From Geosiphon pyriformis uo1 (taxonomy: Eukaryota; Fungi; Glomeromycota): 23,515 bases of DNA. The notes beneath the pieces were generated by a model that was not told the origin of the DNA, did no database searches, and saw only the letters and a program-made list of their open reading frames with translations. The position numbers were made by a program, and so were the translations under genes. The stretch covers positions 1 through 23,515 of the forward strand of contig JAAOMT010000035.1 of assembly GCA_016748015.1 (NCBI GenBank), read 5' to 3'. This document shows, one piece after another, positions 1 through 23,515 of this stretch (positions within the stretch are counted from its first letter, which is position 1; each line of letters begins with the position of its first letter).

Positions 1-1087
1 TAGATCTGAGTCAAGATCAGAATCGGAAGTATCACCCTCGGCATAATACATTCCAGGATCATGACGATCCATCCTATGCCTCATTGCAATCCTGCTGAGG
101 AAAGTGAGATGTTGTGAAGTTGGATTTTGACCACCATGAACTCTAGAAGCATGTTTACCTCCGATTTTTCTTAATCTTTTAGCTGTAATGCCATATGGCT
201 TTAAAAATTTACTAAATATACCTGTACTACGTTTTCCATTAATACTATAGACAGGATCACGCAACTTTCCAATCGCTATTGCATTTTGAATCCAGGTAAG
301 CAATTCTCTTGCACGTTCTGGATTCTTTTCCATGGATAGAAACGGTCGAGGCTCAGAATTGTTTTTTGCTTCTCCTTTATTTTTAATATACCCAGTACAA
401 TACCAAGAGTAATCGGGATTATACCATTCCGGAGGATTTGATTCGTCAGGCTCATAATAGATAATGCGAAGAGTAGTTGCTTCAGCGGGTCTCATGCTCA
501 ACATCATGATCACATCTGCAAGATTTTGTAGAGTGGGGGTCTCAGTGGTACGGATATTCTGAAGTCTTCTAAGCCCCTCTTCTAAGGAGAAGTGTTTAGG
601 CGTTTTAGGTCGACTGATTAGAAGCTCGAGTAATATCTGGTAATTTGGCATATGTATTAATTTGCTCGGGATCAACTCCAGCTTCTGCTAATTCTTTACG
701 AAATTGCGAAAGACAGGAACTGGCCGCCACAATCGCCTCATCTGTATTATTTTTTGGCACAGCTAAGTCTAAAGCATGTAACCAAATATCCGACACATCT
801 CCAGTTTTTGCACAATATCGAGCTCTTTCCTTGACAGTAAGCTTTTTCCCCCTTTTGTCTGGTACAAGAGCTTCTATTTGATTTTCTTTGAATAGGCGCC
901 GACGGAGAGCCTCTTTCACATCTTTACGAGCCTTCCAATCTGGTAGCAAAGTACCAAGCTCATTGGCATGAGCACGTAATTGAAGTGGGTTTGATTCAGT
1001 TGATAGGTTATATTTATTTAGGATCTGATCCAAAATGGAGGTAAAGCTATTAGTTTTGGGGTTTCGGGTTTTTCGGGCAGTTATCAT
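1..1087 (-). pseudogene. Protelomerase (telomere resolvase)-like tyrosine phosphoryl-transfer enzyme; one frameshift near 610-625; C-terminus runs off the window edge
   Basis: ORF 605..1087 gives the N-terminal part. A second - frame is open from about 620 to base 1: LISRPKTPKHFSLEEGLRRLQ...DVIMMLSMRPAEATTLRI...WYCTGYIKNKGE...YGITAKRLRKIGGKHASRVH...LSRIAMRHRMDRHDPGMYYAEGDTSDSDLDSDL. Candidate catalytic residues: R (490-492), K (382-384), KxxR (178-180/169-171), H (76-78), Y (43-48). Spacings are 36, 71, 31 and 10-11 aa. Confidence 0.72.
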
Positions 1088-1109
1088 GGTCGTATTGATA
1101 ATATATTAG

Positions 1110-1220
1110 ATAAGTAGATTGTGATTATACATTAACCTACTTATTCTTTCAAATCGAAAATTAATTATTTGCGAGTCGGTATATCTATACCCAAAAATTG
1201 AATGGGTCGTGGTTAATGTA
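1110..1220. promoter_or_regulatory. Inverted-repeat-rich spacer upstream of the resolvase-like gene (candidate promoter, origin or target site)
   Basis: ATAAGTAG (1110-1117) / CTACTTAT (1137-1144); TACATTAACC (1128-1137) / GGTTAATGTA (1211-1220); near-palindrome GGTATA-TC-TATACC (1178-1191). Function is inferred only. Confidence 0.3.
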
Positions 1221-1233
1221 ATTCTATCGGAAA

Positions 1234-1452
1234 ATGGATATGAGTAAGACACGAGATCGATCAGGCACGAAATGTCATTTTTCTCAAAATAAGGTTATAG
1301 AATCCATAGCTCTATGTAATAAGATTGCTGAAAATATCAATGAGATCAAAGAGGATATAGCTTTACTCAAAGAGGTCATCCAAAAAATTATTGATATATG
1401 CCAAGTATATGATTATACTTCATGTCTAGAATCGGGTAAGTCAGGTATATGA
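1234..1452 (+). CDS. Small hypothetical protein with a probable coiled coil
   Basis: Intact 72-aa ATG ORF with a heptad-like stretch (IAENINEIKEDIALLKEVIQKI). It overlaps the convergent Zn-finger ORF by 40 nt. Confidence 0.4.
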   Translation: MDMSKTRDRSGTKCHFSQNKVIESIALCNKIAENINEIKEDIALLKEVIQKIIDICQVYDYTSCLESGKSGI

Positions 1453-1697
1453 TTCTCAAGCATAACAATTTTTGCACGTAATTCATCCCGCTTTTTTCTG
1501 CGATAATTCTCTCTACTTTGATATTTGCCTACATGTTTATAGCATGCATTATGTATAGAACTATTTAGCTCACCACAATCTCTACAAGGAGTACGTACTG
1601 GAGATTTCCAATGAACATAGCATCCTTCTGATCTATAACTACCTCGACCACAGATTTTTCCAGTTCTATGGATATATGGGCAATGATAAAATACCAT
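1413..1697 (-). CDS. Small Cys/His-rich zinc-finger protein with a basic tail
   Basis: Intact 94-aa ORF with C-x9-C-x9-C-x2-H, then C-x2-C-x10-C-x2-H, then RRKKR. Confidence 0.65.
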   Translation of the reverse strand: MVFYHCPYIHRTGKICGRGSYRSEGCYVHWKSPVRTPCRDCGELNSSIHNACYKHVGKYQSRENYRRKKRDELRAKIVMLENHIPDLPDSRHEV

Positions 1698-1882
1698 CGT
1701 GATTGTATATTATAATCTTGTGAATCAAATTTATATTTTTTCTTGGCAAAGTGCGTTCCGAAAAAGAATGGAGAATAATTAATTTTTATTTTAAAGATTT
1801 ATCTACTAGTTATTATAGTTACAAAATATTATTATATATACTTTTTGTCAGATCAAACAACGCGCATATACAAATCAATAAA

Positions 1883-4800
1883 ATGAATCTGTCTAGTGAG
1901 GCAAAAAAACATCTACGTGAATCGTTACAACAACAGTGCCTAAATCAAAAATTGGCTGAATATAATAAAGCAAAAAAGCTTCTCACGAGTTTAACTGATC
2001 TTGATAGAGGACATACATATTATAAATATTGGCTTGCATCAGATGGTCGTGCCAGCTCTGCTGATAGAAACGATACGGCACTTTTAGAGGCATATTGATC
2101 AGAAGAGATTTATTCTCAATATATAATTCGGACGGCAGGAAAAGGTTATACAGTGATTGATCATCCTACCAAAGTTTATGGAATGCCTAACACTCATAAA
2201 TGTATTGATGGAAATCGGCCTCTTCATTTAATAATTGATATTGATGCAAGACAAAAGCCTGATCCCTCTGATTCTAAACTTTCTTCTCTAGATAGTGAAA
2301 AAATTACTCATGAGGATTTAATGTCTCGAATTTTAGTCGCTTATGCAGATGCATTAAGCCTTATACCAGACTGTATGCCTTTCTTAAATTCTTTTGCATT
2401 AGCAAGTTCATCGAATGCCAATAAATGTAGTTGGCATATTATTTATCTTCAGGCCCAATTCGTGGATTATAGAGAACTTAAGAGTTTTACAGAAAAAGTT
2501 ATTAAATTAGTTGGGGAACCTTATTCAAAGTTCATTGATATTGGTCTTCCCAAAAAACATTTCAATCTTCGGTTACTTGGATTGACAAAAGAAGGTAAAG
2601 TTAAAAGACCCACAATCTCTTCAGTCTAAAATGGATTTCAAAAGCTGGAGGATTATTTAGTTCAACCTAAAGAGAATTATTCTGAAATCTGGCCACAAAT
2701 CTTTTCTCCAGAGGAGCCAGTAAAACAAGAATTCCAACCTATTGATGATGAAAATATCTTGGTTGAGGGAGCCAATTTAGTTATTGCAAAATATGGGTGG
2801 CTCCAAATTGGAAGAACTGAGAAGGGGTTCATCAACTTTGAAGCACAATCTGTTAAAGAATGCCCTATATGTGACATTAAATATGATAAGAATCAACTCT
2901 ATGAATTTATTCGAAAAAATGGGTATTTTATATTTAAGTATTATTACCAAAAACAATACAAGCCAGATTACAAGGGCCTTAGTTTCAATAAGGTATCCAA
3001 CAAAGTTGAGTCAAAAGAAAAGTCTAAGCTCACTTGTTGAATTATCTGAAAAAATTATCAATGTAAAGGAAATGAAAGATGCACCAAAAGCTTACCCTAA
3101 TTTCTTAAGTGAGAATCTCACTACAACTCTTATTCGCTTATCTGTTGCTAGTGGCAAAACAAAAAAACTAAGAGAAATTCTCAATTTTTTAGCCAAAAAT
3201 AGAGCAAATTTGCCTTGTTTTAACTGAATTTCATATTGTAAAACTCTTAACAATAAGACTAAAGCTAAAGTTAAAATATTGCAAAATTCAAAACTTCATG
3301 TATGCCATTATTAGGAAAATAAGGATAATTTAGCTATACGTTATTATTGTCCAAGTTGAAAGTACTCATTATCTTAATTTCTATGAAAGGCATTCTTATG
3401 TAGTTATTTTAGATGAAAATAATGCTATTATGCGTCAAATGTCTAGTGGAGTTCATGCACATAAATCTGAAAATGCTATGCAGGATTTATTAAAATTAGC
3501 TGTTCATGTTATTTCTATGGATACAATTGCAAACAAATTGACTTTAAACTTTTTAAGACAATATTGAGATGGAGATATAAGAATTTTTGATAACAAATAT
3601 AAGCCATGTAAAGATGAGACTGTTAAAATTCTTTATGATTTAGATAAAAGATCAGAAACTATACATAGGGGTCTTAAAATGCTTCAGAAAGGTAAACGAG
3701 TTGCTTTTTTAATGACTTCATGCAAAAAAGCACAAGCTTTAACAAACCAAGCTTCCAAATTACAAAAACCAGATGGCTCATACATTTTATCATGAATTTA
3801 TTTTGGCCAAATGAATGGAAAGCAACAGCAGGATGACTTTGCCGATATTAATACTATTTGGAATAGTCTTGATTGTGTGGTTTATACAAATACTGTAGAA
3901 GCTGGCATCTTTTTTGAAATTTCCAATCATTTTGATGCAGTTATAGAAATAAGTAATATTAATACAGAAGTACATGCTGAAGCTTTTGCACAAATGTTTT
4001 ATCAAGTTTGCAATTACCCATATCATATTATTTCTCTCTATAATAGTAAAAAAACTGACATTTTCAAAGAACCAAATCGTGATCTCATTTGTGCTGAACT
4101 TTTTGCCCTGAGACTTGGGGACTTGTCAACTGTTATAAAAAGACATTGTGAATAAAATAAAATTAATGACTGTTATATATTTGATTCATCTCCAGCCATA
4201 GATTTATATTAAGGTCAAATATAAAAGACACTTATTGGCCAAATATTTCTCTGAGATTTTTTGTAGTCTTATTGCTAGTACTGGAGCAATTCTTGAATTA
4301 ATTTTGACAGAAGATACTAAAAAAGTTAACAAAAATAAAATTTCTCATACTATTAAGAATATTGAGAAAAATATAAAAGCTTGGATACAGAATCAATAGC
4401 AAATGCTTCAGATATTAGTCTCAATAAAGTTGAAATTTTTAAGCAAAATTTTATATACTTTTTTGCTGATAACATGACTTTACAATGTCATTATTTATGG
4501 AGAACATATGCTTTAGGTAATATTGGTGGCAAGAATGATATTTAAAACTGGGGTATGAATAATAATGATTGGATTAAGCTTTGTAATATAGATTTTGTAA
4601 AAAAATTCAATAATCCTGAATCTTTACAACATTTTAGAAAGCTGGCATATTTTAAAAGACAAGGTTTCAATGCGACAAAAGCTATAGAAAATTTAAAAAT
4701 CAAAGAAAAAATGCAATGGGAAAATTCACATAAATCTATGGATCCATCTTCAGTCAATTTGCATAAATTTTATTCAGCAAAACAATAGGAAGCGGTACAT

Positions 4801-5309
4801 AATCTTGTCCAATCAATAGGTTTTAGAGATATAAATGATATGAATATTCTTTTTGATGATGATATGGCTAAGACTTTTGAGCAATCATGAGAAGATACAT
4901 TGTTATTTTTTGGTTTTAAGACCAGAGCTAAAGGATTGCCTGATTTTAATGCTACAATAAAATTTATTAATGCAGTAATGAGTAGTTGGTGTGGTTATAC
5001 TATTAAGAGTAGTGCAACTCATGTAAGTTCTAAAGAACTTCAAGTATAGAAAAAAACATATTGAATTGATCGCAACCCATATTGTGGAGCTGGCTTTAAT
5101 AATCAAGAAGTAATAGCTAAGAAGTTAAATATTGTCCTATAGCTCCAGTTCTTTCATCATATAAGTCAAAGGTAATTGATGAAATTCAGGATCTTTTTGA
5201 TTTAATACTCATTACTACTAATATCACCATTTCAAAATTCAGTAATGAGGTTTGTGAAAAGAGTTCTTGCAATAACATAGTTAGAAAATTTATAACAGAT
5301 TTGCCATAA
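1883..5309 (+). pseudogene. AEP (PrimPol-like) primase - Zn ribbon - UL9/origin-binding-protein-like SF2 helicase fusion, with multiple stops and frameshifts
   Basis: ORFs 1751, 2153 and 2759 share a frame; the likely start is ATG 1883. AEP motifs: LIIDID, KCSWHII, FIDIGLP..FNLRLLG. Zn ribbon: CPICDIK. Helicase motifs: IRLSVASGKT (GKT 3153-3161), VILDE (DE 3412-3417), ISMDTIAN, VVYTNTVEAGIFFE, AFAQMFYQV. These parallel UL9 RAPMGSGKT / LDE / AMDATAN / YTTVVTVGLSF / QSLGRVR. The last frame ends ...FITDLP* at 5309. Confidence 0.8.
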
Positions 5310-5491
5310 TTGCCCGTTTTCATGTTTGATTACAAGTATATAAGCATCACTTGTAAAGTGGTTGTAGTGCGTTGACTTTCAAACTTAGACTAACACTTTT
5401 TAAAAACAATTTTTTGTGCAGACAACCATTTGCTTTACTTAAGCACTTTTATCTTATACTTGCCTCCAAAAACTCTAACTTTTTATCAAAC

Positions 5492-8071
5492 ATGTCTCAA
5501 TCTACTTCTTAATCTACTATCTTTTCTAATAACATGGACATTGACATCCTCCTAATGAACATTAGGGAATCCATTACTGTTCAAAAGCTTGCTGACCAGC
5601 TTGCACTCAAGATTGGTTCTTTCAGTCTTGATAATATGTTGTTCTCTCAAATTCCAAAGCAAAAAAATTATGTTTTTTTTCTATTTCATAAGATAGATGA
5701 TTTGAAATGTAAAATTGTTGCTAATTCAAACCATGACCCAAAATTTTTTCTACCTACTCCTCTTTATGATCTTTCTCAATTTCTTTCTGATGACTTACTT
5801 ATAATTAATAATACACTTGGTGAAGTTTGTGTGACTTTAAAGCATTTTCGTGAAAATTTGCTATTGGCAAAAATTGCTGAATATAATGCTCTTATCAATA
5901 AGTCTCCCTCAAAAGTTCATTTGGATGTCGCCAGTTTAATCAATAAAGTTCATACTAATGACTTGGTTTCCAATGAAGCTAAGAGTGGTTTACTGGGAAT
6001 TCTTGATAAAAAAATTAAGGAGTTTAAAACATTCATTAAAACTTATCAAGCTTTAAAGAACTTGGTCATTGGTTCTGCTGTAGTTAGTTTTACTCCACAC
6101 AAGCCTGTTTTGAAAAAATATTTTTCTAATAAAGTTGTTTCTGTAAGTTCTGGTATCAAAACCTTCCCCAAAATGTAAAGTTCACCCATTTCTGGCCAAG
6201 AAGAATCTCCCAAACAAAAAAGTGAAAAATGCAAAACAAGGCAATCAAAAGGGAAAAAAAAGGCCTCAAAAACAACAGTTAAACAACCACTCAAAGCCAA
6301 AAAATCAACGAAGATATTGGTTCACAATATTTCTTCTGTAATTATTTCCTCTTTTGTTATAGATTTCTTGAAGTTAGATTCAAACTTTCAACTTACTTCG
6401 AAACTCTCTTTTGTTAAGACCTATTAAACGTGGTCAGGCATTAGAAAACAAATCCTCAAAGCCTATGGTAAAATCCCTGAAAAGAAAAGAGAAAGCCTCT
6501 TAATTTTCAATCAGCATTTACTCTTTGCATCCGACTATATTTTAAATAATTTCAATATACTTAAAGATCATAGAAATAGTATTTTTAATATTTCTAAATA
6601 TGTTAATGATGTTTTATTATTTTTAATAAATCATGACTTGATTGTTGTTCTATTAGATAAAAACATGGGTCTCACTATTTGTGATTATTCTCATTATAAC
6701 ACTAAAATGCTTAAGCTACTTTTTGACACTTCAGTTTTTAAGCTTTGTGATGTGCCTGACGTTTTGCACTGTTCTAAATTGCTCTTGGATCATATATCTG
6801 ATTTTTATATGAGCACTGACTTAAGGAAACATAAAAATACTCATGAATACTTGCAAAAAATATTTTTTCCTTTACATAATTCTGAATTACATTTCTCTGA
6901 AATTTATAGATTATGGAAATTACACAAAAACTCTTGTGTTTTTCATCCTATTACTCTTAATCATTCTTAGATTATGTCTGCTGCTTCGCATTAGTTAGCC
7001 AAATGTTGGCAACTCTACATTAAAAAATGTCCAATAGTCTTTGATAATTCTATGAGTTTTGTTAAACTTATTTCGAATTATTATTATGGCTATGTTACTG
7101 TTACTATATTTGATATCAAAAATATGTATACCAATATTGAAATTCATACGTTTTATCAGTGCATTTAGGCTTGGCTGAAATTTTTTTCATCTGATCACTC
7201 AAATTTTGAGAATCTTTGGTTGACCTTTGAAGTTAAACTTATGAGGCTTATTTTTGAGAATAGCTTTGTTCTTTATGAAGATTTGTTTTATTACTAGCAC
7301 AAAAGACTGATGATAGATACTTTAGCTGCTCCTATTATCATGAATTTATTCTGTGCTTCTATTGAACACAAAATTGTCATAACTATGGGTAATACTTTTG
7401 GGTCTATTATTGTTCGTCATTATTTGGATGATATTATTGTTATTTATAACCCTCATAAATTTGATATTAATGCCTGGGTATGGTATTACCAGTCTCTTGC
7501 TGTTTCTTCTATGTTTATTTTGGAATGCACTGATAATAATGATTATAATGCCGTATTTTTAGATTTGAATATTTCGGTTTTCTAGTCTAATAATCTTACC
7601 AAATTTTCGGTCCAATTTTATGACAAACCATGTAATCCTCATATATATACTGATCTTTAGACTTTTTATCCCAGGAAATATGTTATGAACTGGATTCAGG
7701 GCAAAAATATTCATCATATTTGAAATAATTTGGATTTTTCCAGTTACTGGATTCATATTAAAGAATTTAAAGCTTGGCTGCTGGCTAGAGACTATCCCCT
7801 GTCTGTGGTTGACTTTCAACTTAACAAAAATACTTGGGCTGAGAGGTCTCAGCTTCTTGGTTTTCATAAAAAAAGAGATTTTTCTAGTATCATTGTTAAG
7901 ATTCCTAATCTACCAGAAAAGCCTCTTATATGTAAAGTCATTTCCCCTTTATTTTCAAGTTATGTCAACTCTTTGGTAGCTATAGTTATCCGTGGTAGTA
8001 GTGTTTTTAATGTTGTTAATAGAGCCAGAAGGATTTTAATCGTACAAAAACTGGCTGAACCTACTTTTTAG
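5492..8071 (+). pseudogene. Penelope-like reverse transcriptase (~860 codons, in-frame stops, no GIY-YIG domain)
   Basis: ORFs 5534, 6638, 7310 and 7730 are all in one frame with ATG 5492. PLE-type motifs: VHNISS..FLKLDSNF, LLDKNMGLTI, IYRLWKLHK..FHPI, FDIKNMYTNI, AAPIIMNLF, YLDD (7421-7432), FLDLNI, YDKP..HIY, LLARDYP. The frame ends at 8071 with no Cys/His linker or GIY-YIG. Confidence 0.82.
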
Positions 8072-8224
8072 TGTTCACTGGTGTTGAATTCTGATTGGTT
8101 TGCATGATTTGGCTTGACTTGGTGACAGCTAGCTAAATTATTTTATCCTTGGTCCAGCCATGTAATTTTTATCCCATTGGCCATTGTCACAGGCTCTAGC
8201 ACATGATTAGTTTTGTTCTATGAC

Positions 8225-8279
8225 ACTAACCCAACCCTCTACATCTGATCTTAACCTTAATCCTGACTCTAACCCTAAT
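8225..8279 (+). repeat. Degenerate interstitial telomeric tract, (CCCTAA)n-derived
   Basis: Six in-phase hexamers at 8244-8279: TCTGAT CTTAAC CTTAAT CCTGAC TCTAAC CCTAAT. All differ from CCTAAC by transitions only. They are preceded by ACTAAC CCAACC C. Confidence 0.65.
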
Positions 8280-13599: not shown

Positions 13600-14486
13600 T
13601 TTTAGAAACTATAATATTATAAAAATTTAAAAAAAATTTCTTAAAAACTTAATTTATTATTTAAACAAAGATTCAAAAGTTATTAGCATTGATATTTACA
13701 CTATTTATTTTAAAGAACTTAATTATAATATTATTAAGTTTTATAAAAAAAAATATTTTGTTGATTTAAAATTTGTTCTTAAACTTAAATTTGAATCTAA
13801 AATTAACAAAAACAAAAAAAACACTTAACTAGTTTACACAATTTTTAATACATTAAAAACAAATCTTTTAATATTTATAAAAAAACCAATTTTAAATTAC
13901 TATTTTTAATTACATTTTTTTCGATTTTGTTTGCTTAAGTACAAATATTTAATTCATTTTTTAACTAATTTTTAAGACCAGAAAACTTTATCAAAAATTT
14001 AATCTAATAGTTAGAACTAATTTTAAACTAATATTAATCTTCCTAATTATTTAGCAGAAAACCAAAGTAAATATTTAAAAATATTAGCTTACAAAAAAGA
14101 CATTTCTGAATCTATTGAAAAAAAAAACAAAAAAAACAAAAACTATAGACAATAATAAAAATAAAAAAATGACTATTTATATTGCAAAAATTTTTAAATT
14201 CTCTAAAAAAACANNNNNNNNNNNNNNNNNNNNACTTTAATTATTTTTTAAAACTACTTTTAAAACATCAAATAAAAACTATTAGAATCTATTATAACTT
14301 ATATTAAAAAGTTTAATAAATTTCTTAAAAAAATTTATTAGCTTAAAACAAATACTTATTACTCTAATTTTTAAAATTTGGATTAAACTATTATTAATTT
14401 AAGGAATAAATTAATCAAAAAAGTTTATCTACATACTTTAACAGATTTAAATACTACTATTTAACATATTAAAAACTATAAAAGAG
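13600..14486 (+). pseudogene. Heavily eroded retrotransposon gag relic, interrupted by the LTR at 14487
   Basis: Residual reading MTIYIAKIFKF [gap] ...NIK*KLLESIITYIKKFNKFL...NLRNKLIKKV...TDLNTTI*HIKNY resembles the capsid C-terminal/MHR pattern (Q..ESV..Y..RF...F..GL). The start is approximate. Confidence 0.45.
14214..14233. other. Assembly gap (20 N)
   Basis: Run of 20 n characters. Confidence 1.
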
Positions 14487-15354
14487 TGTTACTCATAAAA
14501 ATATAAGAAGTATATTAGTACATAAATTAGCCAATTAGAGGTAGCCATAGTAAATATAGAATTCCAAGATTCTTTTTAAAAGAAATTGCAGAATTCCAGA
14601 AATTTTAGGATTCTTGTACAAGGAATTGCAGAATTCCAAAATTCCAAAATTTTTCTCAAAAAAAATTGCAAGATTCCAGAAATTTCAAGATTCCTGGTGT
14701 GAAAAATTGAGAAATTGAGGAATCTCAATTATGTATATATAGTGGTAGTATTAGAAGTAGAAAAGGCAGACCTCTCAGTTTAGATTTCATCTAAGCAACT
14801 TTCAAATTCACAAATATTAATAAATAATTATTCTCTATCTCAAATCCACTTTCCACTATTAACACTTCATGTTGATAGTAATTGATACTTAACCACACTG
14901 AAACAATAGCTCTTGATCATGGTTATTGACAAAATACTAACTTGTAATTGCTTTTATTTGTTTCATTATTTTTTTTTATATTTTTTTATTTTCTTTTGTT
15001 ATTTTTTTGGTTTTACTAAATTGATTAAGAATTAAGCGCTAAGATACAGATGTTATAAGGACTGGTAAAAGACCCATGAAACAAGAGTAAAACACTCATA
15101 AATTTGAGAATAGCTTATTAGGAGAATTACTGGCCATCACGCTGAAAAAAAAATTTGACAAAACTGCAGTTTTAGGAAGCTACAAATAAAACCATCAATT
15201 AAATCTCTGTCTATTATACAAAAAACTCCACAACAAAACCTTCAGATAATAACAATGTACCAACATTACCAACACCATCCACCAGATTAGTCATTGAGCA
15301 CCAAGTTACAAGTTTGTTATTTGATTTGGAGACCCCAAATAATTACCTATAACA
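14487..15354 (+). mobile_element. 5' LTR (868 bp) of a + strand LTR retrotransposon
   Basis: Ends are TGTTAC...ATAACA. It is homologous along its length to the reverse complement of 16234-17071 (e.g. TAGCCAATTAGA, GAGGAATCTCAATTATGTATATATAG, AATCTCTGTCTATTATACAAA) and is followed by a PBS. Confidence 0.85.
14560..14700 (+). repeat. Imperfect ~40-bp tandem repeats (GAATTGCAGAATTCCAG-type) in the LTR U3 region; counterpart at about 16890-17000
   Basis: About three diverged units are visible in the + LTR, with related units in the - LTR. Confidence 0.6.
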
Positions 15355-16233: not shown

Positions 16234-17071
16234 TGTTACAGGTGATTATTTCTGCTGTTGAATTAAATAACAAACCCATAATTTGGTGCTCAAAAGCTAC
16301 TTCTGTGGATAAGGTTCTGCAAGTGTTGTATCTGAAGGTTTTGATAGAGTCCTTTGTATAATAGACAGAGATTCAATAGTGTTGATAGTAGATATATCTT
16401 TCCAAAAATTTTCTCAATTTCTTTCTCAATGTGGTGGCCAGATTTAGTCTGGCAGTCATGCCCTTTTAGTAAGCTATCCAATAATATATAAAATCCTACT
16501 CTTATTTCTGGGTCTTTTACCAGGCTATTCTTGACGTCAATAACTCAATACTTAATTTTTTAATCAATTAGTATACAACAACAAAATCAAAAAAAGAAAG
16601 AAAATAAAATAAAAAAAATAAAAATAAAGAAAATAGAGAAAATAAGCCAAGGCAATTTGGTACGTTAGTATCTCGTCAATAGCTGTGATCAAGAACTATT
16701 GTTCCAGTGTAGTTAAGTATTAATTACTATCAACATAAAGTGTTAATAGTAGAGAGTGGGTTGAGATATGGAATAATTATTTATTTGATAATTGGGAACT
16801 GAAATGTTTCTTTGATTCAATCTAAACTGGGAGGTCTGTCTTTTTAGTTTCTAATCCTGCTGCTATATATACATAATTGAGATTCCTCAATTTCTTGATT
16901 CTTCACAACAGGAATCCTGGAATTCCTGGAATCCTGCAATTCCTTTGAGAGAAATCCTAAAATTCTGAAATTCTGCGATTTCTTGTCAGGCTGGAATTCC
17001 ACATTTACTATGCCTACTTCTAATTGGCTACTACTCATGCTAATCTATTTCCTATATTTCTATAAGTAACA
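16234..17071 (-). repeat. 3' LTR (838 bp)
   Basis: Terminal inverted hexamers TGTTAC (16234) and GTAACA (17066-17071), an adjacent PPT, and homology to the LTR at 14487. Confidence 0.88.
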
Positions 17072-17086
17072 TTATTCCCTTTTTTT
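17072..17086 (-). promoter_or_regulatory. Polypurine tract
   Basis: The - strand reads AAAAAAAGGGAATAA immediately before the LTR's TGTTAC. Confidence 0.8.
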
Positions 17087-17750
17087 AATATTGAGCTCCG
17101 TTGAAATCTAATTCATTTAATTCCTCCTCTTGAAGTATTTCCTGGATTTCGTTTTTGAGAATTACTTGTGTTATTTGGGTTTGTAATTCTTCAAATTGAG
17201 TATTGGTGATCTTTCTCAATTGATTACTGGTAACCATATTCATTGCTTTGTTGAGTAATATTTTTGGTCTATCCTGAAATGCTGTGTGTATTTGGTAGAT
17301 GGCTCGGGTCTGTGTGGATAAGTTGTTCTTTCCCACAAAATGTTCTAATTGTTGTAGTATTTTTTTGTCAAATAATTGCTTTGTTTTATCCGTATATAGA
17401 TTTTGGATATTTATGTGTTGTCCCAAGTAAAAATAACAATAGTTTCTTGGAAATTGTTGTATCTACCAATTCCAAGTTTTTTTAGTCAACTCTTGATATA
17501 GTGCCTCTTTTGTTAACTCTCTTATTGCTAATTTTACTTTTGTAATAATTTTGTCCACCATATTTTCAGTTTTCTTCTGTGTTCTGGGTTGCAATGTTTT
17601 TCTAGTATCTCAATATCAAGTGGTTTATTAATTGATTGTAATCTCCATTTCCTGGTGTTGAATTAATTAAAAAATTTGTTGGGCTAGTGAATGGATATTG
17701 TCCGTAATCTCCATTTTTCTGCTCTCTTCTGTCACATCAACCATGTTCTT
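17085..17750 (-). pseudogene. Additional ORF of unknown function between integrase and the 3' LTR
   Basis: ORF 17085..17426 extends upstream through stops (NMVDKIITKVKLAIRELTKEALYQEL...). Its stop codon overlaps the PPT. The start is approximate. Confidence 0.5.
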
Positions 17751-17767
17751 ATATATTCTTTTGTTGA

Positions 17768-19150
17768 TCAATTGGACGTGTTGTTGTCAATAATAATGAT
17801 TGGTTCCAGATCTCATGGAATCACATCTGGTTGGACTAGTATTCTCTGTACTCTTAATTGTGGAATATTACTGGTGGATGATGATGCTATATGGTGGTAT
17901 GGTTTCAGTTAATCTCCATGTGCTACTTTGGTCAAGATTTTGTTATTCAATCTTAATTTGTAAGCTCCATTTCTTAGAATTTCTTTTATGTAAAATGGTT
18001 TATTCCATTTGGGGTCAAATTTTCCACTCCATTGTTTTTCCGCTTTGGTATGATGTAAGAATACTTTGTCTCCAATTTTGAATTCAACTGGTTTGTCTAG
18101 TAGTTGGTTATCATGTCTTTTTTTTTGTTTCTCTTGTGACTTTTGTATGTTATCAGCTGCTCTTTATTGTTTGTTTTCTAATGTTTTTATTAAGTCATAT
18201 GTTCTTCTCAACAATGTATTTTTGAAATTTTCTTCTGTTATTGGTTTGGTTGGATATGTGCTGACTTTTATTTCCACTGGTAGTATTGCTGTTTTACTAT
18301 ATACTAATTCAAATGGTGGTACTTGTATAGTATCTTGCTTCATTGTCCGATAAGCAAATAGTATTGATGGTATCAACAAATTCCAATTGTTCTGGTTTTC
18401 TTGGCTGAGTTTAGCTATTGCTTCACACAATGTTTTGTTGAATTTTTTGACTAATTCATTGGTTTGTAAATGGTATGGTGATGATAGTGGTCTCTTAATT
18501 CCAAATTTTTGGCTCAATTCTGTTAATGTTTTGTTCACAAAATGAGTTTCTTGGTCTGATAATAATTCTTTTGGACATCTATGTCGACAGATCAAATCCT
18601 AATGAACAAATTCAGCAACGGATTCTGCATTCGCTCTTTGAATTGCTTTCACCTCTGGCCATTTAGTGAGATAGTCCATGGCTACTGCTATGTACCTGTT
18701 TCCTCCACTGGTGATTGTTAATGGTCTGACTAGATCAATTCCAATACAGTCAAATGGTTGTCCTACTTTGATTGGTTTTAATGGTTTACTGGGTTTCGTA
18801 CCTCCTCTTTGCTGACAAGCATCACAATTTTAAACATATTGGATGATGTCTGGATACATTGATGGCCAATAGTATTTTTTTCTGGTTTTTTCTTTGGTTG
18901 CTTCTTTGTGAAAATGTCCTGCTGTTTGATTTGAGTGCATGTTGAATAATATTGTCTCTTTTTCTGGTTCTGTAACTACTCTGGTTGGTTGATCTGGATC
19001 TTTTCTATTTTTCCGATAAAGTATATTTTGGTGAGTGATAAAATATTTTGATTGTTGTTTAATACTCTTTCATTCCATTTGAGATAAATTTTCCTTGAAC
19101 TGTTGAGTGGTTATATAATGTTGAAGTTGTTGATATTTTTGTATGTTCAT
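17768..19150 (-). pseudogene. Integrase (HHCC zinc finger, DDE core, GPY/F region)
   Basis: MHSNQTAGHF..YYWPSMYPDI..CDACQ; IGIDLVRPL; AMDYLTKWPE; LLSDQETHF; SPYHLQTNELVKKFN; KFDPKW/PFYI. Contains stops and a frameshift near 18000. Confidence 0.9.
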
Positions 19151-19212
19151 CTTTTGTTATATTTTTCATTGTTATTGTTCTGGTTTTGTTATATTTTTGT
19201 GTTAAAATGTTC

Positions 19213-20500
19213 TTAGATTTGTCTCATTCATGACAAACCGTCAGCATTTCTATTGTCTTTTCCTTTTTTGTAATGTATAGTATAATTGTATGGTGCAAGT
19301 GCTATTTTCTATCTTGACTGTTTTCCATCTCCAAATTCTTGTTTTTGGAGTGATGTTAATCCCTTGTGGTCTGTGTATACTTCAAACTTCTGGCTCAAGT
19401 ATTCTCTCCATTTCATGACTGCCCAGTATATTGCTAAGTATTCTTGTTCTAGTGTTCTATAGTTCTTTTCGGCTGGCATTAAACCTCTGCTGGTATATGC
19501 TACTAAATGTTCTCTGTCATCTGGTCCTCTCTGAGATAATACTGCTCCCAATGCTTAGCCAGATACATCAGTGATGATGATGAATGGTTTGCTGTGATCT
19601 GGATAAATCAGTACTGGAGCTTGAATGAGCTTTCTTTTCAAAATGTCAAAAGCTTTTTGTTGACTTTCTGCCCATTCATATTTGGCATTCTTGGTTTGCA
19701 GTTGGTTGAGTGGCTGTGCTATTTTGGAAAAATTCTTGATAAAACATTGATAGTAGCTGGCGAATCCCAAGAATGATTTCAGTTCTGTCATATTGGTCAG
19801 CATTGGAAAGTTTTTTACTATCTTTATTTTCTCTGGATCTGTTTTGATGCCGTTTTTGCTGACTATGTGTCCTAAGAATTTTAGCTCTGTTTTGCCAAAG
19901 AAGCACTTTGTTGCATTTAACTTTAGCTCTGCTCTTCTTAGTCTTTCGAACACTTGTTGAAAATAATGAAAATGATCATTAAATGTTTTTGAGAATACGT
20001 TGGTGTTGTCTAAATATACAACTACTGATTTCCACAATAAGCCAGTATAGATAATTTCTATTAACTATTAGAAAGTGGCTGGTGCATTGGTTAAACCAAA
20101 TGGCATTACTTCAAATTCAAAATTCCTTTCTTTCATGGTGAATGCCATCTTTTTTTTGTTGGCTGGATCTATGGCTACTTGCTAGTAACTACTATCTAAG
20201 TCTAATGTTGAGAACCATTTGTTTTTGCCAAAAGCATCAAATAATTCCTATATCCATGAAGTTAGATAGCTGTCTCCATGAGTTACACCATTGAGTTTTC
20301 TGTAGTCTACACAAAATCAGATCTTTCTATTCTTCTTATGGACAAGTACCACTGGTAATGACTATGGGCTCATTGATGGCTGAATTAGCCCATTGTCAAG
20401 CATTCAGTTTATCTTTTAACGAATAATCTCGTGGCTGACTGGTGGCACTCTGTATGCTCTTTGTTTAATTGGCATTGCATCTTCAGTCTTGATCTGGTGC
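19213..20500 (-). pseudogene. Reverse transcriptase and RNase H
   Basis: FCVDYRKLN, TLDLDSSY*Q, VMPFGLTNAPATF, YLDN (20005-20016, from YLDD), KFLGHIVS, ITDVSG, NY..LEQEYLAI, YTDHK, NADGLS. Confidence 0.95.
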
Positions 20501-21044
20501 TGAATGATGTCAGTTTGGCCAAACTCATTTTTGCTGGCAAAGATTTTATTGAACTGGTTGAGCAACATCTTGAATTGCATACATTGGAGTGGATCTAAGT
20601 TTCCCATGTTTATTTGTTCCAATTGTTTTGGTTGGAGCAAATAACATTCACTTTGTCTGTATATTGTTTGTGATGTGATATCAACATATCCACAAAGTTG
20701 TGAAAAGTCTGGAATGAGGTTTGGTGGTTGATCCTCTATTTCAGTGTTTAAGTATTCAATAATGGTTCCGGCTGGTATTTCTATGACATTTTCTGTATTG
20801 TTGTAGATGGGAATTTTGATGTGGCTGTAATCTTTGGCTGGTATGTAGAGATTGATAAGTTCAACTTCTCCTGATTTACAAAGACTGGCTTCTGCTTCAA
20901 AAATTTGTGCTTGGTCTTTTTCCTTCCTTTCTATTGCTAGCATGTACTGGTTATATAGTAGAATAGAAATAGCTTGACTGGTTGAGATAATTTTTTCTTG
21001 GCCAACAATTTTTTCCTCTGCTATATTAACTAGTATATCTATTC

Positions 21045-21441
21045 TACTCGTTGATCCGAATCCCTGTATTCCTCTTGCTGTTATTCTTAATTTTTCTCTC
21101 TTTCCCACTGATACTAACTGAGCTATTTTAACCAGAGGCAGGAATATTGCCTGTGCTATCTTTTCATTGAGCTCTATTACATAGGCCTTTTCTGAGTCAT
21201 TTTGTAGCATAGTGATGATATTTCCTATATATCTCACATTAATTATTTCTCTTCTTATATTAATTCCTCTTTTCGCTAAACTACTTCTAAATGCTAATTG
21301 AACTATTGTTGTTGCCAGAATTTCTAGTGCTACTTTCAGATCAATACAGGTGCATGAATGTGGTTCCAATTTGATGGCTTCTTTTTCTGAATATCTCAGA
21401 TCAAACCCTGTATCAGTATCATGTACACGTTCTGGCATAAT
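21045..21441 (-). CDS. dUTPase domain within the polyprotein (ORF 20416..22113), motif III degenerate
   Basis: Motif I TGFDLR, II RSSLA, III REIINVRYIG (from GGIIDxGYxG), IV EKIAQ, V RGIQGFGSTS. Confidence 0.9.
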
Positions 21442-22549
21442 ACCTTCTCCATTGTTACTATACCATTTCAACTCTTGTTCTTTAGAGAAATCTGGTAGTG
21501 CAATGTATTGTTCATAGTTTAAATTGGAGTTTGAATCTGAGTTTGAATCATCTTTGTTGTTATTGCCATTTTGAACAGAGCTGGAATTGGTGTTTTCATC
21601 ATCATTATTACAGTCTAGATCACAATTGATCAGTGATTCTGATTCCGATGCACAGCTGCTGATTGGTTTTTCTTCTTCAGAGATCATGTAGATCATGCAT
21701 GGTGGTGGATTGTAAATGAGATTACAATTGTCACAATATTCAAAGTCACTGGGAATTAAACAATAGCAACACAGTCTTGTATTTAACTGTACTAGCAATT
21801 GTTTTTGCTCTTTTCTAGTGGGTGCCAAGTTTTGGTAATGTTCATGGAATTCTTCTGGTTCCAGAAAATTTATAACTGGCTCTGCATCCCAGTCAAGCTT
21901 GACAGGTTCTGGTGGGTTGTTTTTAATTGTCCTGATTTCTTTTGGCGATTGCCATTCGCCATAATTCATTGTCGTCATGTGGACAACTGTCCAATCACTG
22001 TACAGCTCTTCTCCAGATGGCTTCAATGGGTGTTTTTTTCTTGATCCAGTCACTGATGAGGATTGTGTATTGGCAAAACACATCGCATGTTCCTTCTCTC
22101 CCCGGAATGTCATTCTATATTTCTTTGTCGAGGAAAGTTTCTCTACAGACTATACATGGTGTATTATCCCATTTTTCTACTTGTTTTGGTCTTCCAAAAT
22201 GTTCGACATGGCATGCATGGTAATAGAACTTGGTTAACTGTAGGTGTATGGGATATAAGTGTTGTTGGCTTGAATGTTTTCTTTCTTCCTCTTTTTCCCT
22301 TTGTCCTTTTCTTTTTTCCACTTCCAACTTGATGGTTCTTTCTGTTCGTTGTCAGTCCAGGTCAAATCGTCTGTTTCCCAAGTCAGTTCTTTTTTTTGTT
22401 TTCCTTTAGGGTTGTCGTTCCACGAGAGTATTGGTGGTAGTTTGTTGTGATCAGCGTTGGTCCAGAAGACTTGGTAAGCTTCCCAGATAGGTTTTTCTTT
22501 CTTCTCTTCCAGTTCGATCAATAGTTTCTCTCTTGGAGGAGTCTTGAAA

Positions 22550-22900
22550 TGACCACACGTGGCTGGTACATGTATGTGTTGGCCATAATATGTTAGCTGG
22601 AGTTCCTGGGTGTTCTAGTTTAACGTTGCATTGACTTTGAATAGCCAGTCATTACCAACAAGAGCTTGATATTGAGTGGCTTTCATCACTAGAACTTTAA
22701 TGGGAGTCATGATGCCATTGACTTCAAAAGGAAAGTCATCGATTTCACCAATTGGAGTTTTGGTTGTTTCATCGGCTGTGATGATTTTGGTACTGGCAGC
22801 TTAATCAATTCGGCAACTTAATTGATCCATGAGTTGTCATGTGATGATGCTGCCTGCTGAATTGTTATCAAGGATTAATTTGATGGATTGTCTCTCGACT
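22550..22900 (-). pseudogene. Retroviral-type aspartic protease
   Basis: IKLILDNNSAGSIIT (D at 22867-22869, from DSG), IITAD, ALVGNDWL; in-frame stops are present. Confidence 0.85.
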
Positions 22901-23088
22901 TTGGCGTCAGTATACATCGCAGTGATTGGTTTGGCTTCAAGAGTAGCTCCACTAAATAATAGCGTTGTAGTCATTTTCTCGAATTCGAATAGGAATATAG
23001 CAGCCAAAGACTCGTCTTCGGTGATGATAGCAGATAGGATATTACTGGTGAGTGGTTGTTTTTGGGTGAATGCTGGGTTATTGGTTGA

Positions 23089-23515
23089 GGGTTAGGGTTA
23101 GGGTTAGGGTTAGGGTTAGGGTTATTGGTTGAGGGTTAGGGTTAGGGATAGGGATAGGGATAGGGATAGGGATAGGGTTAGGGATAGGGATAGGGATAGG
23201 GATAGGGTTAGGGTTAGGGTTAGGGTTAGGGTTAGGGTTAGGGTTAGGGTTAGGGTTAGGGTTAGGGTTATTGGTTGAGGGTTAGGGTTAGGGTTAGGGT
23301 TAGGGATAGGGATAGGGATAGGGATAGGGATAGGGATAGGGTTAGGGTTAGGGATAGGGTTAGGGTTAGGGTTAGGGTTAGGGTTAGGGTTAGGGTTAGG
23401 GTTAGGGTTAGGGTTAGGGTTAGGGTTAGGGTTAGGGTTAGGGTTAGGGTTAGGGTTAGGGTTAGGGTTAGGGTTAGGGTTAGGGTTAGGGTTAGGGTTA
23501 GGGTTAGGGTTAGGA
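23089..23515 (+). repeat. Telomere (TTAGGG)n with variant repeats
   Basis: GGGTTA array running to the window end in G-strand orientation, with 16 GGGATA variants and TTGGTTGA inserts at 23125-23132 and 23271-23278. Confidence 0.98.

Follow-up and report, generated by a model that had tools for sequence, protein, structure and literature searches.

A decayed cassette of telomere resolvase-like and primase-helicase genes in Geosiphon pyriformis, a possible relic of a hairpin-ended mobile element of Glomeromycotina

A few phages and bacteria have hairpin telomeres made by resolvases, and such telomeres have recently been supported for brown-algal viruses by fold-back reads at a telRL-like site in Ectocarpus phaeovirus proviruses (PMC13236599). 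In the N15-type phages (N15, phiKO2, PY54 and VP882) the resolvase gene telN is found together with repA and telRL. Here we describe a comparable pair of genes in the fungus Geosiphon pyriformis uo1. They belong to a four-gene cassette located within positions 1-5315 of an AT-rich stretch of 23,515 nt (contig JAAOMT010000035.1, GenBank assembly GCA_016748015.1), hereafter called the window. What the window carries is the broken, integrated copy of a mobile element that occurs in many copies in Glomeromycotina, and we consider the chances even that the living form of this element is a self-replicating linear DNA with hairpin ends. Judged by its sequence, the window copy itself is incapable of activity. 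The cassette consists of the following parts:

1..1087, minus strand: pseudogene of a resolvase-like tyrosine recombinase, with its ATG at 1087 and its 3' end left of the window
1234..1452, plus strand: helical/coiled-coil open reading frame (ORF) of 72 aa, with no Pfam family
1413..1697, minus strand: Cys/His-rich ORF of 94 aa, likely zinc-binding (Zn ORF), intact in the window
1883..2650, plus strand: primase domain of archaeo-eukaryotic primase (AEP) type, part of the replication pseudogene, with motifs DxD, KxSxH and D..RLxG kept and with in-frame stops
2860..2950, plus strand: Zn-binding motif, CxxC..H..C in relatives, of which the His and last Cys are gone in the window copy
3033..5315, plus strand: UL9-like superfamily 2 (SF2) helicase with C-terminal domain (PF02399), frameshifted, with many stops and truncated at ~5315

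An initial annotation of this DNA had given the same four genes in this order and orientation, and all are found in the window. It had also called them intronless, in agreement with the intact relatives, which are single ORFs in metagenome DNA with no sign of introns. That both large genes are pseudogenes is a point absent from that annotation.

The recombinase is predicted to belong with the telomere resolvases ResT, TelA and TelK. Fold comparisons were made with the AlphaFold model of an intact homolog (P0005), whose mean predicted local distance difference test (pLDDT) value is 76. This model has a tyrosine-recombinase fold with the architecture of resolvases, i.e. an N-terminal helical domain, a long linker helix and a tyrosine-recombinase catalytic domain. 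An exhaustive VIA-align comparison with 48,161 PDB representatives gave four structures with Z>=8, all of them telomere resolvases. The ResT catalytic domain was aligned with Z 10.5 over 135 residues (3.3 A), and TelA (Z 10.2 and 9.8) and TelK (Z 9.9) over 237-245 residues, covering the N-terminal helical and the catalytic parts. The next-best PDB row has Z 6.4, and integrases and XerH are at Z 5.1-5.6. Helical models may score this high by chance with this aligner; in this case, however, four chains of one family head the list with a margin of more than 3 Z, and their alignments include the catalytic domain. Of 30 ESM Atlas matches, 20 fall in PF16684 clusters (0.96) and one is a phage integrase; nine have no common family, the top one of these being a Mucoromycota cluster. 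The view that the protein is protelomerase-like and not integrase-like is thus backed by two independent comparisons, VIA-align and ESM. In HHalign, R, K and R line up with the motifs of the protelomerase profile (P 0.0046), and no catalytic alignment of the family with lambda Int was obtained. Among 25 full-length members, R211 and K247 are found in all 25, R318 in 24 and Y360 in 23, and a conserved His is missing at the HxxR position. The spacing between His and Tyr is 11, equal to that of H324 and Y335 in ResT. The family thus carries a catalytic R-K-R-H-Y set without the HxxR His of integrases, the Tyr being assigned by sequence spacing. Membership of the Crypton, Glomhopper or Starship groups was considered and rejected, as Phage_integrase, DUF3504 and DUF3435 match none of 19 resolvase members.

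A 35-nt deletion near 618-621, relative to the intact relatives L001 and L002, breaks the resolvase gene of the window into ORFs 605-1087 and 1-651, both on the minus strand. The alternative of two separate genes was rejected, since L001 and L002 carry the 35 extra bases in one gene; in relatives, the resolvase is a single gene of about 370-400 aa. The window still has the codons for R, K, R, H and Y, the residues of the presumed catalytic set. The gene model of P0011, on a 137-kb contig, has a break at the same place, which may mean that the gene was duplicated after it had broken. A contig from the sequencing run that best matches the window joins the 3' end of the resolvase to the same downstream sequence as in L002, which means that related copies in that organism extend past the left edge of the window. 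Among the contig matches listed, no joint with a change of strand was seen; assembled contigs are unable to reveal hairpins or copy number, and this result carries no weight for or against hairpin ends. A signature like that of repeat-induced point mutation was also looked for and rejected, the CpG excess in C>T rates being merely 1.4- to about 4-fold in three comparisons.

The second large gene, encoding the replication protein, starts at 1883 and aligns in successive frames to an intact homolog of 1142 aa (P0123). It is interrupted by 13 in-frame stops and 5 frameshifts, which give six frame segments, and it stops at ~5315, before a decayed retroelement, so that about 95 aa are missing in comparison with homolog P0125. 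The window copy lacks two of the Zn ligands, as well as the arginines of motif VI, that relatives conserve. PF02399 matches the replication protein (E 6e-23), with 81 bits for P0123 versus a cut-off of 20, and 30 bits for the read-through of the window copy. Walker A, Walker B and motif VI are those of UL9-like SF2 origin-binding helicases, and herpesvirus UL9 structures are matched. The sole PHROG match of the protein is phrog_4913, the N15 RepA family (E 2.6e-21), and its sole tblastn matches in 50,697 phage records are two records of RepA from the protelomerase phage VP882. The model of the CyRepA1 plasmid initiators, NF042913, matches the helicase region (E 2e-39) with a score of 136, under its 200-bit cut-off. 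The N-terminus conserves the motifs DxD, KxSxH and D..RLxG, followed by CxxC..H..C. We take these three motifs to be AEP motifs of the clade of PrimPol, nucleocytoplasmic large DNA viruses and herpesviruses. The family profile matches the poxvirus D5 primase domain weakly (E 0.027). As the full-length model is poor (mean pLDDT 49, and below 50 for the N-terminal 326 residues), the AEP assignment rests on motifs and profile comparison. The primase N-terminus of N15 RepA has no similarity to that of the fungal protein. Of the UL9 helicase and N15-type kit proposed initially, the UL9-like identity and the homology to the N15 RepA family therefore stand, but the primase is not of N15 type. It is worth mentioning P0253, a protein of 1199 aa with AEP, Zn and UL9 parts; the contig that encodes it is 114 kb long and comes from a bin labelled Methylomonas. 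The N-terminus of P0253 aligns with that of the replication protein (probability 87%), the two proteins are collinear over the AEP, Zn and helicase parts, and P0253 scores above the replication protein against NF042913. Its architecture suggests a mis-binned giant-virus contig.

Both genes belong to large families. A search with the C-terminal ORF of the resolvase recovered 176 proteins among 266 candidates, and a profile search 487 representatives at E<=0.001, divergent ones on 4-22 kb contigs included. With the helicase as query, 63 proteins were found among 5,866 candidates, 60 of them from Glomeromycotina and one being P0253. Among the 120 proteins listed from the resolvase search, all organism-named ones are from Glomeromycotina, the genera being Gigaspora, Rhizophagus, Diversispora, Cetraspora, Dentiscutata, Entrophospora, Geosiphon, Ambispora, Paraglomus, Acaulospora and Glomus. 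The family is also present in soil metagenomes. No relative was found in GTDB genomes, tblastn of plasmids and phages with resolvase queries gave no match, and in IMG/VR five of six scans were without relative, the other one counting a single stretch related to P0368. A subfamily of 40 resolvases (the P0266 cluster), with 10 of 15 listed full-length members having 380 aa and with contigs of up to 13 kb, is a candidate source of currently active copies.

The resolvase and helicase genes are found together in other copies and genomes: they lie next to each other in 8 of 73 metagenome loci (1-5 kb each) and in five named species. On linkage and copy number, the initial reading is thus not refuted. 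The Zn ORF is found in 20 of these loci, in both of the layouts observed. In the layout of the window, the helicase is divergent from the resolvase with the Zn and helical ORFs between them (L036 and L043; the small ORFs are also in L002 and L034). In the tandem layout, the helicase is followed by an opposed Zn ORF and the resolvase (L011, L012, L019, L027, L028 and L040). In nine loci, 900 bp or more is available upstream of the resolvase; the helicase is seen in six of these, the Zn ORF in seven and neither in two. For the named species, linkage was read from adjacent or near-adjacent identifiers on contigs of the same length. The pairs are RIB11429/RIB11430 in Gigaspora rosea, GET57503/GET57504 on a 2.6-Mb contig of Rhizophagus irregularis, Glove_406g20/g23 in Diversispora epigaea and C1645_811902/811904 in Glomus cerebriforme; in Rhizophagus diaphanus, one gene model fuses the helicase, the resolvase and a leucine-rich repeat (LRR) gene. 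Copies have further genes in common downstream, namely a coiled-coil gene, F-box/LRR genes and an Asp-protease-like gene in convergent orientation, and a 2C_adapt-like ORF lies upstream of the resolvase in L001 (E 3e-4). The minimal replication kit of the initial annotation thus finds no support, additional conserved genes being present in related copies. Neither the window nor 13 selected non-resolvase ORFs of these 1-5 kb loci showed a capsid, packaging ATPase or polymerase family, and no second integrase was seen near the resolvase in related loci.

The small ORFs are also conserved. The 72-aa helical ORF is kept between the resolvase and the Zn ORF in the copies with the window layout (L002, L034, L036, L043 and L053), and the 94-aa Zn ORF of the window is 81% identical to that of L002. 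Four loci share an imperfect 23-bp palindrome between the start of the Zn ORF and the resolvase (L011 1442-1464, L012 528-550, L014 162-184 and L027 996-1018). It is short and AT-rich, three of its four loci show the tandem layout, and it could be an operator, an origin or the core of a tel site.

The ratio of nonsynonymous to synonymous substitution rates (dN/dS) is 0.16-0.33 in nine of ten resolvase comparisons, the exception (0.88) being that of L001 with the C-terminal part of the window copy. Comparisons of the helicase gave 0.18 and 0.31, those of the Zn ORF 0.25 and 0.98. These ratios point to a family that is mostly under purifying selection. In a quick-search tree, where the row of the window fills half of the columns, the resolvases form several deep subfamilies, each mixing host genera. 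Proteins of Geosiphon are 90% identical over 155 aa to those of G. rosea and 82% identical over 326 aa to those of Paraglomus. This suggests horizontal spread among hosts, with contamination of spore-derived assemblies as an alternative source of the pattern.

The family could thus be explained by a linear replicon with hairpin ends that is capsid-less or depends on a helper, the window being an integrated relic; we see this explanation as evenly poised between true and false. Phage N15 and Borrelia suggest how such a replicon might work: the UL9-like domain would bind and open an internal origin, and the AEP domain would prime DNA synthesis. Extension would be carried out by a polymerase from the host or from a helper virus, none being visibly encoded by the element. 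Once replication had passed through the hairpins, the copies would be joined as dimers, and the resolvase would cut each dimer junction and close it again as two hairpin ends. Entry into chromosomes could take place by repair-mediated capture or by strand transfer by the resolvase, and would be followed by decay as in the window copy. A plasmid-like or helper-dependent lifestyle is assumed here from the fact that no capsid gene was seen. More speculatively, arbuscular mycorrhizal fungi (AMF) may host still-active capsid-less, self-replicating linear elements with hairpin ends, a eukaryotic counterpart of N15 combining a telomere resolvase with a primase-helicase of giant-virus type, that move between distant fungal orders with F-box/LRR and protease-like cargo and leave decayed copies behind. 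This extended scenario is possible, if somewhat doubtful.

Several observations weigh against a hairpin-ended replicon. Concerning the recombinase, its HHalign probability versus the protelomerase profile is just 7.6%, PF16684 at E<=1 matches none of the 19 resolvase members, and PHROG at E<=0.1, PHROG 5272 included, none of three; Pfam, PHROGs, NCBIfam and PDB sequence searches give the protein no family name. Foldseek scores Cre level with TelA against the P0005 model. The box II His is replaced by Gln in 12 of the 25 full-length members, those of one subfamily, and the putative Tyr nucleophile is placed by sequence alone because residues 305-352 of the model have pLDDT <50. Concerning the linkage, 21 loci have 600 bp or more available upstream of the resolvase, and 9 of them show neither helicase nor Zn ORF. 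Concerning the ends, no tel-like palindrome was found: palindromes with arms of at least 11 bp number 15 in the 73 loci and the window, versus 8-18 in shuffled sequences, and none is found in positions 1-5400 of the window. No element end was reached in the loci examined, where copies run on into further genes, and many named copies sit on long contigs, up to multi-Mb. The resolvase alone is insufficient to explain so frequent an integration. Finally, in fold and architecture the replication protein is closest to primase-helicases of giant viruses, and its nearest non-fungal ESM clusters are viral.

This last point leads to the first of the alternatives, i.e. that the cassette is the replication or end module of a larger virus, such as a Polinton-like virus or a Nucleocytoviricota provirus, with structural genes beyond the DNA seen here. 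We regard this as rather unlikely. The top named fold matches of the replication protein are origin-binding helicases of Marseillevirus, Bodo saltans virus, Clandestinovirus and Samba virus, and to these are added the collinearity with P0253 and the viral ESM clusters. A larger virus could also be compatible with a hairpin-making resolvase, as proposed for phaeoviruses. The 2C_adapt-like ORF of L001, the divergent resolvases on 4-22 kb contigs and the IMG/VR stretch related to P0368 are other points in its favour. Moreover, end modules of Polinton-like viruses pair a tyrosine recombinase with a primase-helicase (PMC11296320), and R. irregularis bears an asfarvirus-related provirus (PMC10640383, whose main text mentions no resolvase or recombinase). 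However, neither capsid, packaging ATPase nor polymerase families appear in the 13 ORFs selected, the flanks consist of small genes, the Asp-protease-like gene and F-box/LRR genes, and five of six IMG/VR scans are empty. The compact cassette with its two layouts recurs in many dispersed copies per genome.

An integrase or excisionase derived from a resolvase, in a self-replicating tyrosine-recombinase transposon with a circular intermediate, would account for the many chromosomal copies and would fit with the missing tel palindrome, the equal Foldseek scores of Cre and TelA and the fact that no second integrase was seen near the resolvase. We nevertheless consider it quite unlikely, since VIA-align and ESM set the recombinase apart from integrases, the HxxR His is missing and the integrase-type profiles match none of the 19 members. 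Host genes domesticated to maintain chromosome ends or to repair DNA, to which the distance of about 18 kb between the window copy and a TTAGGG array and the purifying selection might point, are very improbable, as both large genes are broken in the window, the family is multicopy and intronless with intact relatives as single ORFs, the tree mixes hosts and the host carries ordinary telomeric repeats.

Outside the cassette, other features of the window include the following:

5468..8278, plus strand: decayed reverse-transcriptase element with YLDD, its left boundary being approximate
23083..23514, plus strand: (TTAGGG)n array that includes GGGATA variants and adjoins the 5' part of a polyprotein gene of Ty3/Gypsy type

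The array comprises 71 units of TTAGGG type in right-telomere orientation, about 17.8 kb from the cassette. It is likely a chromosome end, and a subtelomeric position of the window copy is plausible. The minus strand carries, over about 17100-23075, the remains of a Ty3/Gypsy-type element that includes a dUTPase domain (PF00692, E 2e-16), and a 15-nt piece of the element's 5' end occurs three times at the start of the array and inside it (23075, 23119 and 23265), as if telomere repeats had been added onto the truncated element. The reverse-transcriptase element, with a weak match to RVT_1 (E 0.03), abuts the truncated helicase and has degenerate CCCTAA repeats at its end (8230-8278). It presumably resembles telomere-associated Penelope-like elements. 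A contig about 8% different also spans the junction between helicase and retroelement (4948-5448), which suggests that this junction was itself duplicated. Between 8300 and 14500 lie about 6 kb at 11-24% GC with no ATG-started ORF of at least 70 aa, an extreme depletion of C and G versus the 30-40% GC of the cassette, and an N gap is found near 14214-14233 inside this stretch. An inverted repeat of about 550 bp (14482-15031 / 16557-17076, 74-87% complementary) flanks a decayed region of 1.5 kb.

In the full-text literature searched, with subscription papers and Repbase outside its scope, we found no description of this element and no report of resolvase-made hairpin ends in fungi. If the hairpin-replicon reading is true, a type of mobile element spread through a whole fungal subphylum has been missing from that literature, and a function could be assigned to a large unannotated protein family of AMF without Pfam match. 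To our knowledge, there is no routine transformation system for AMF, so that a native autonomous replicon would be a lead to a natural vector. A eukaryotic resolvase would also be a new tool for making closed-end DNA. Intact copies of the resolvase and helicase genes exist among the relatives, which makes the claim directly testable.

Compared with known systems, the fungal tyrosine-recombinase transposons (Crypton/Glomhopper, Starships and DIRS) share the recombinase superfamily, and Glomhoppers also the fungal host group (PMC13465315). The present family differs from them in that it matches none of DUF3504, DUF3435 and Phage_integrase and carries a primase-helicase; the words helicase, primase, protelomerase and hairpin have 0 occurrences in the main text of PMC13465315. 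The cyanobacterial CyRepA1 initiators are alike in the helicase region, with a score below the family cut-off. Nucleocytoviricota (Marseillevirus, Imitervirales, African swine fever virus helicase/primase) have the same AEP-Zn-UL9-like architecture and give the best structural matches, but theirs is a single gene in a large viral genome, whereas the fungal gene stands in a small recurring cassette with a resolvase. The end modules of Polinton-like viruses follow the same two-gene logic beside small ORFs (PMC11296320); in contrast, the fungal recombinase is resolvase-like, the helicase is a UL9-like SF2 protein, and no inverted repeats, capsid or ATPase were seen in the fungal DNA analysed. The Ectocarpus phaeovirus proviruses are likewise integrated in a eukaryote and have a telomere resolvase, but they are giant viruses with genes for capsid and polymerase, and a second tyrosine recombinase serves their excision (PMC13236599), while only one recombinase is seen here. 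The telomere resolvase of EhV-86 is a weak fold match (rank 11, E 0.01). With N15-type phages the family shares the fold of the resolvase, a helicase homologous to RepA and the closeness of the two genes. The differences are that the fungal primase is of AEP type and unrelated to the N-terminus of RepA, and that the phage resolvase has 631 aa versus about 370-400 aa for the fungal one, the two being about 10% identical. The N15 telRL lies about 165 bp upstream of telN, and no telRL was found beside the fungal resolvase. N15-type phages have structural and partition genes and a bacterial host, whereas the fungal family, in which such genes were not seen, occurs in eukaryotes as many integrated copies. 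Although the replication protein looks borrowed from the pool of eukaryotic viruses, the pairing of a resolvase with a primase-helicase thus parallels that of N15 in its logic.

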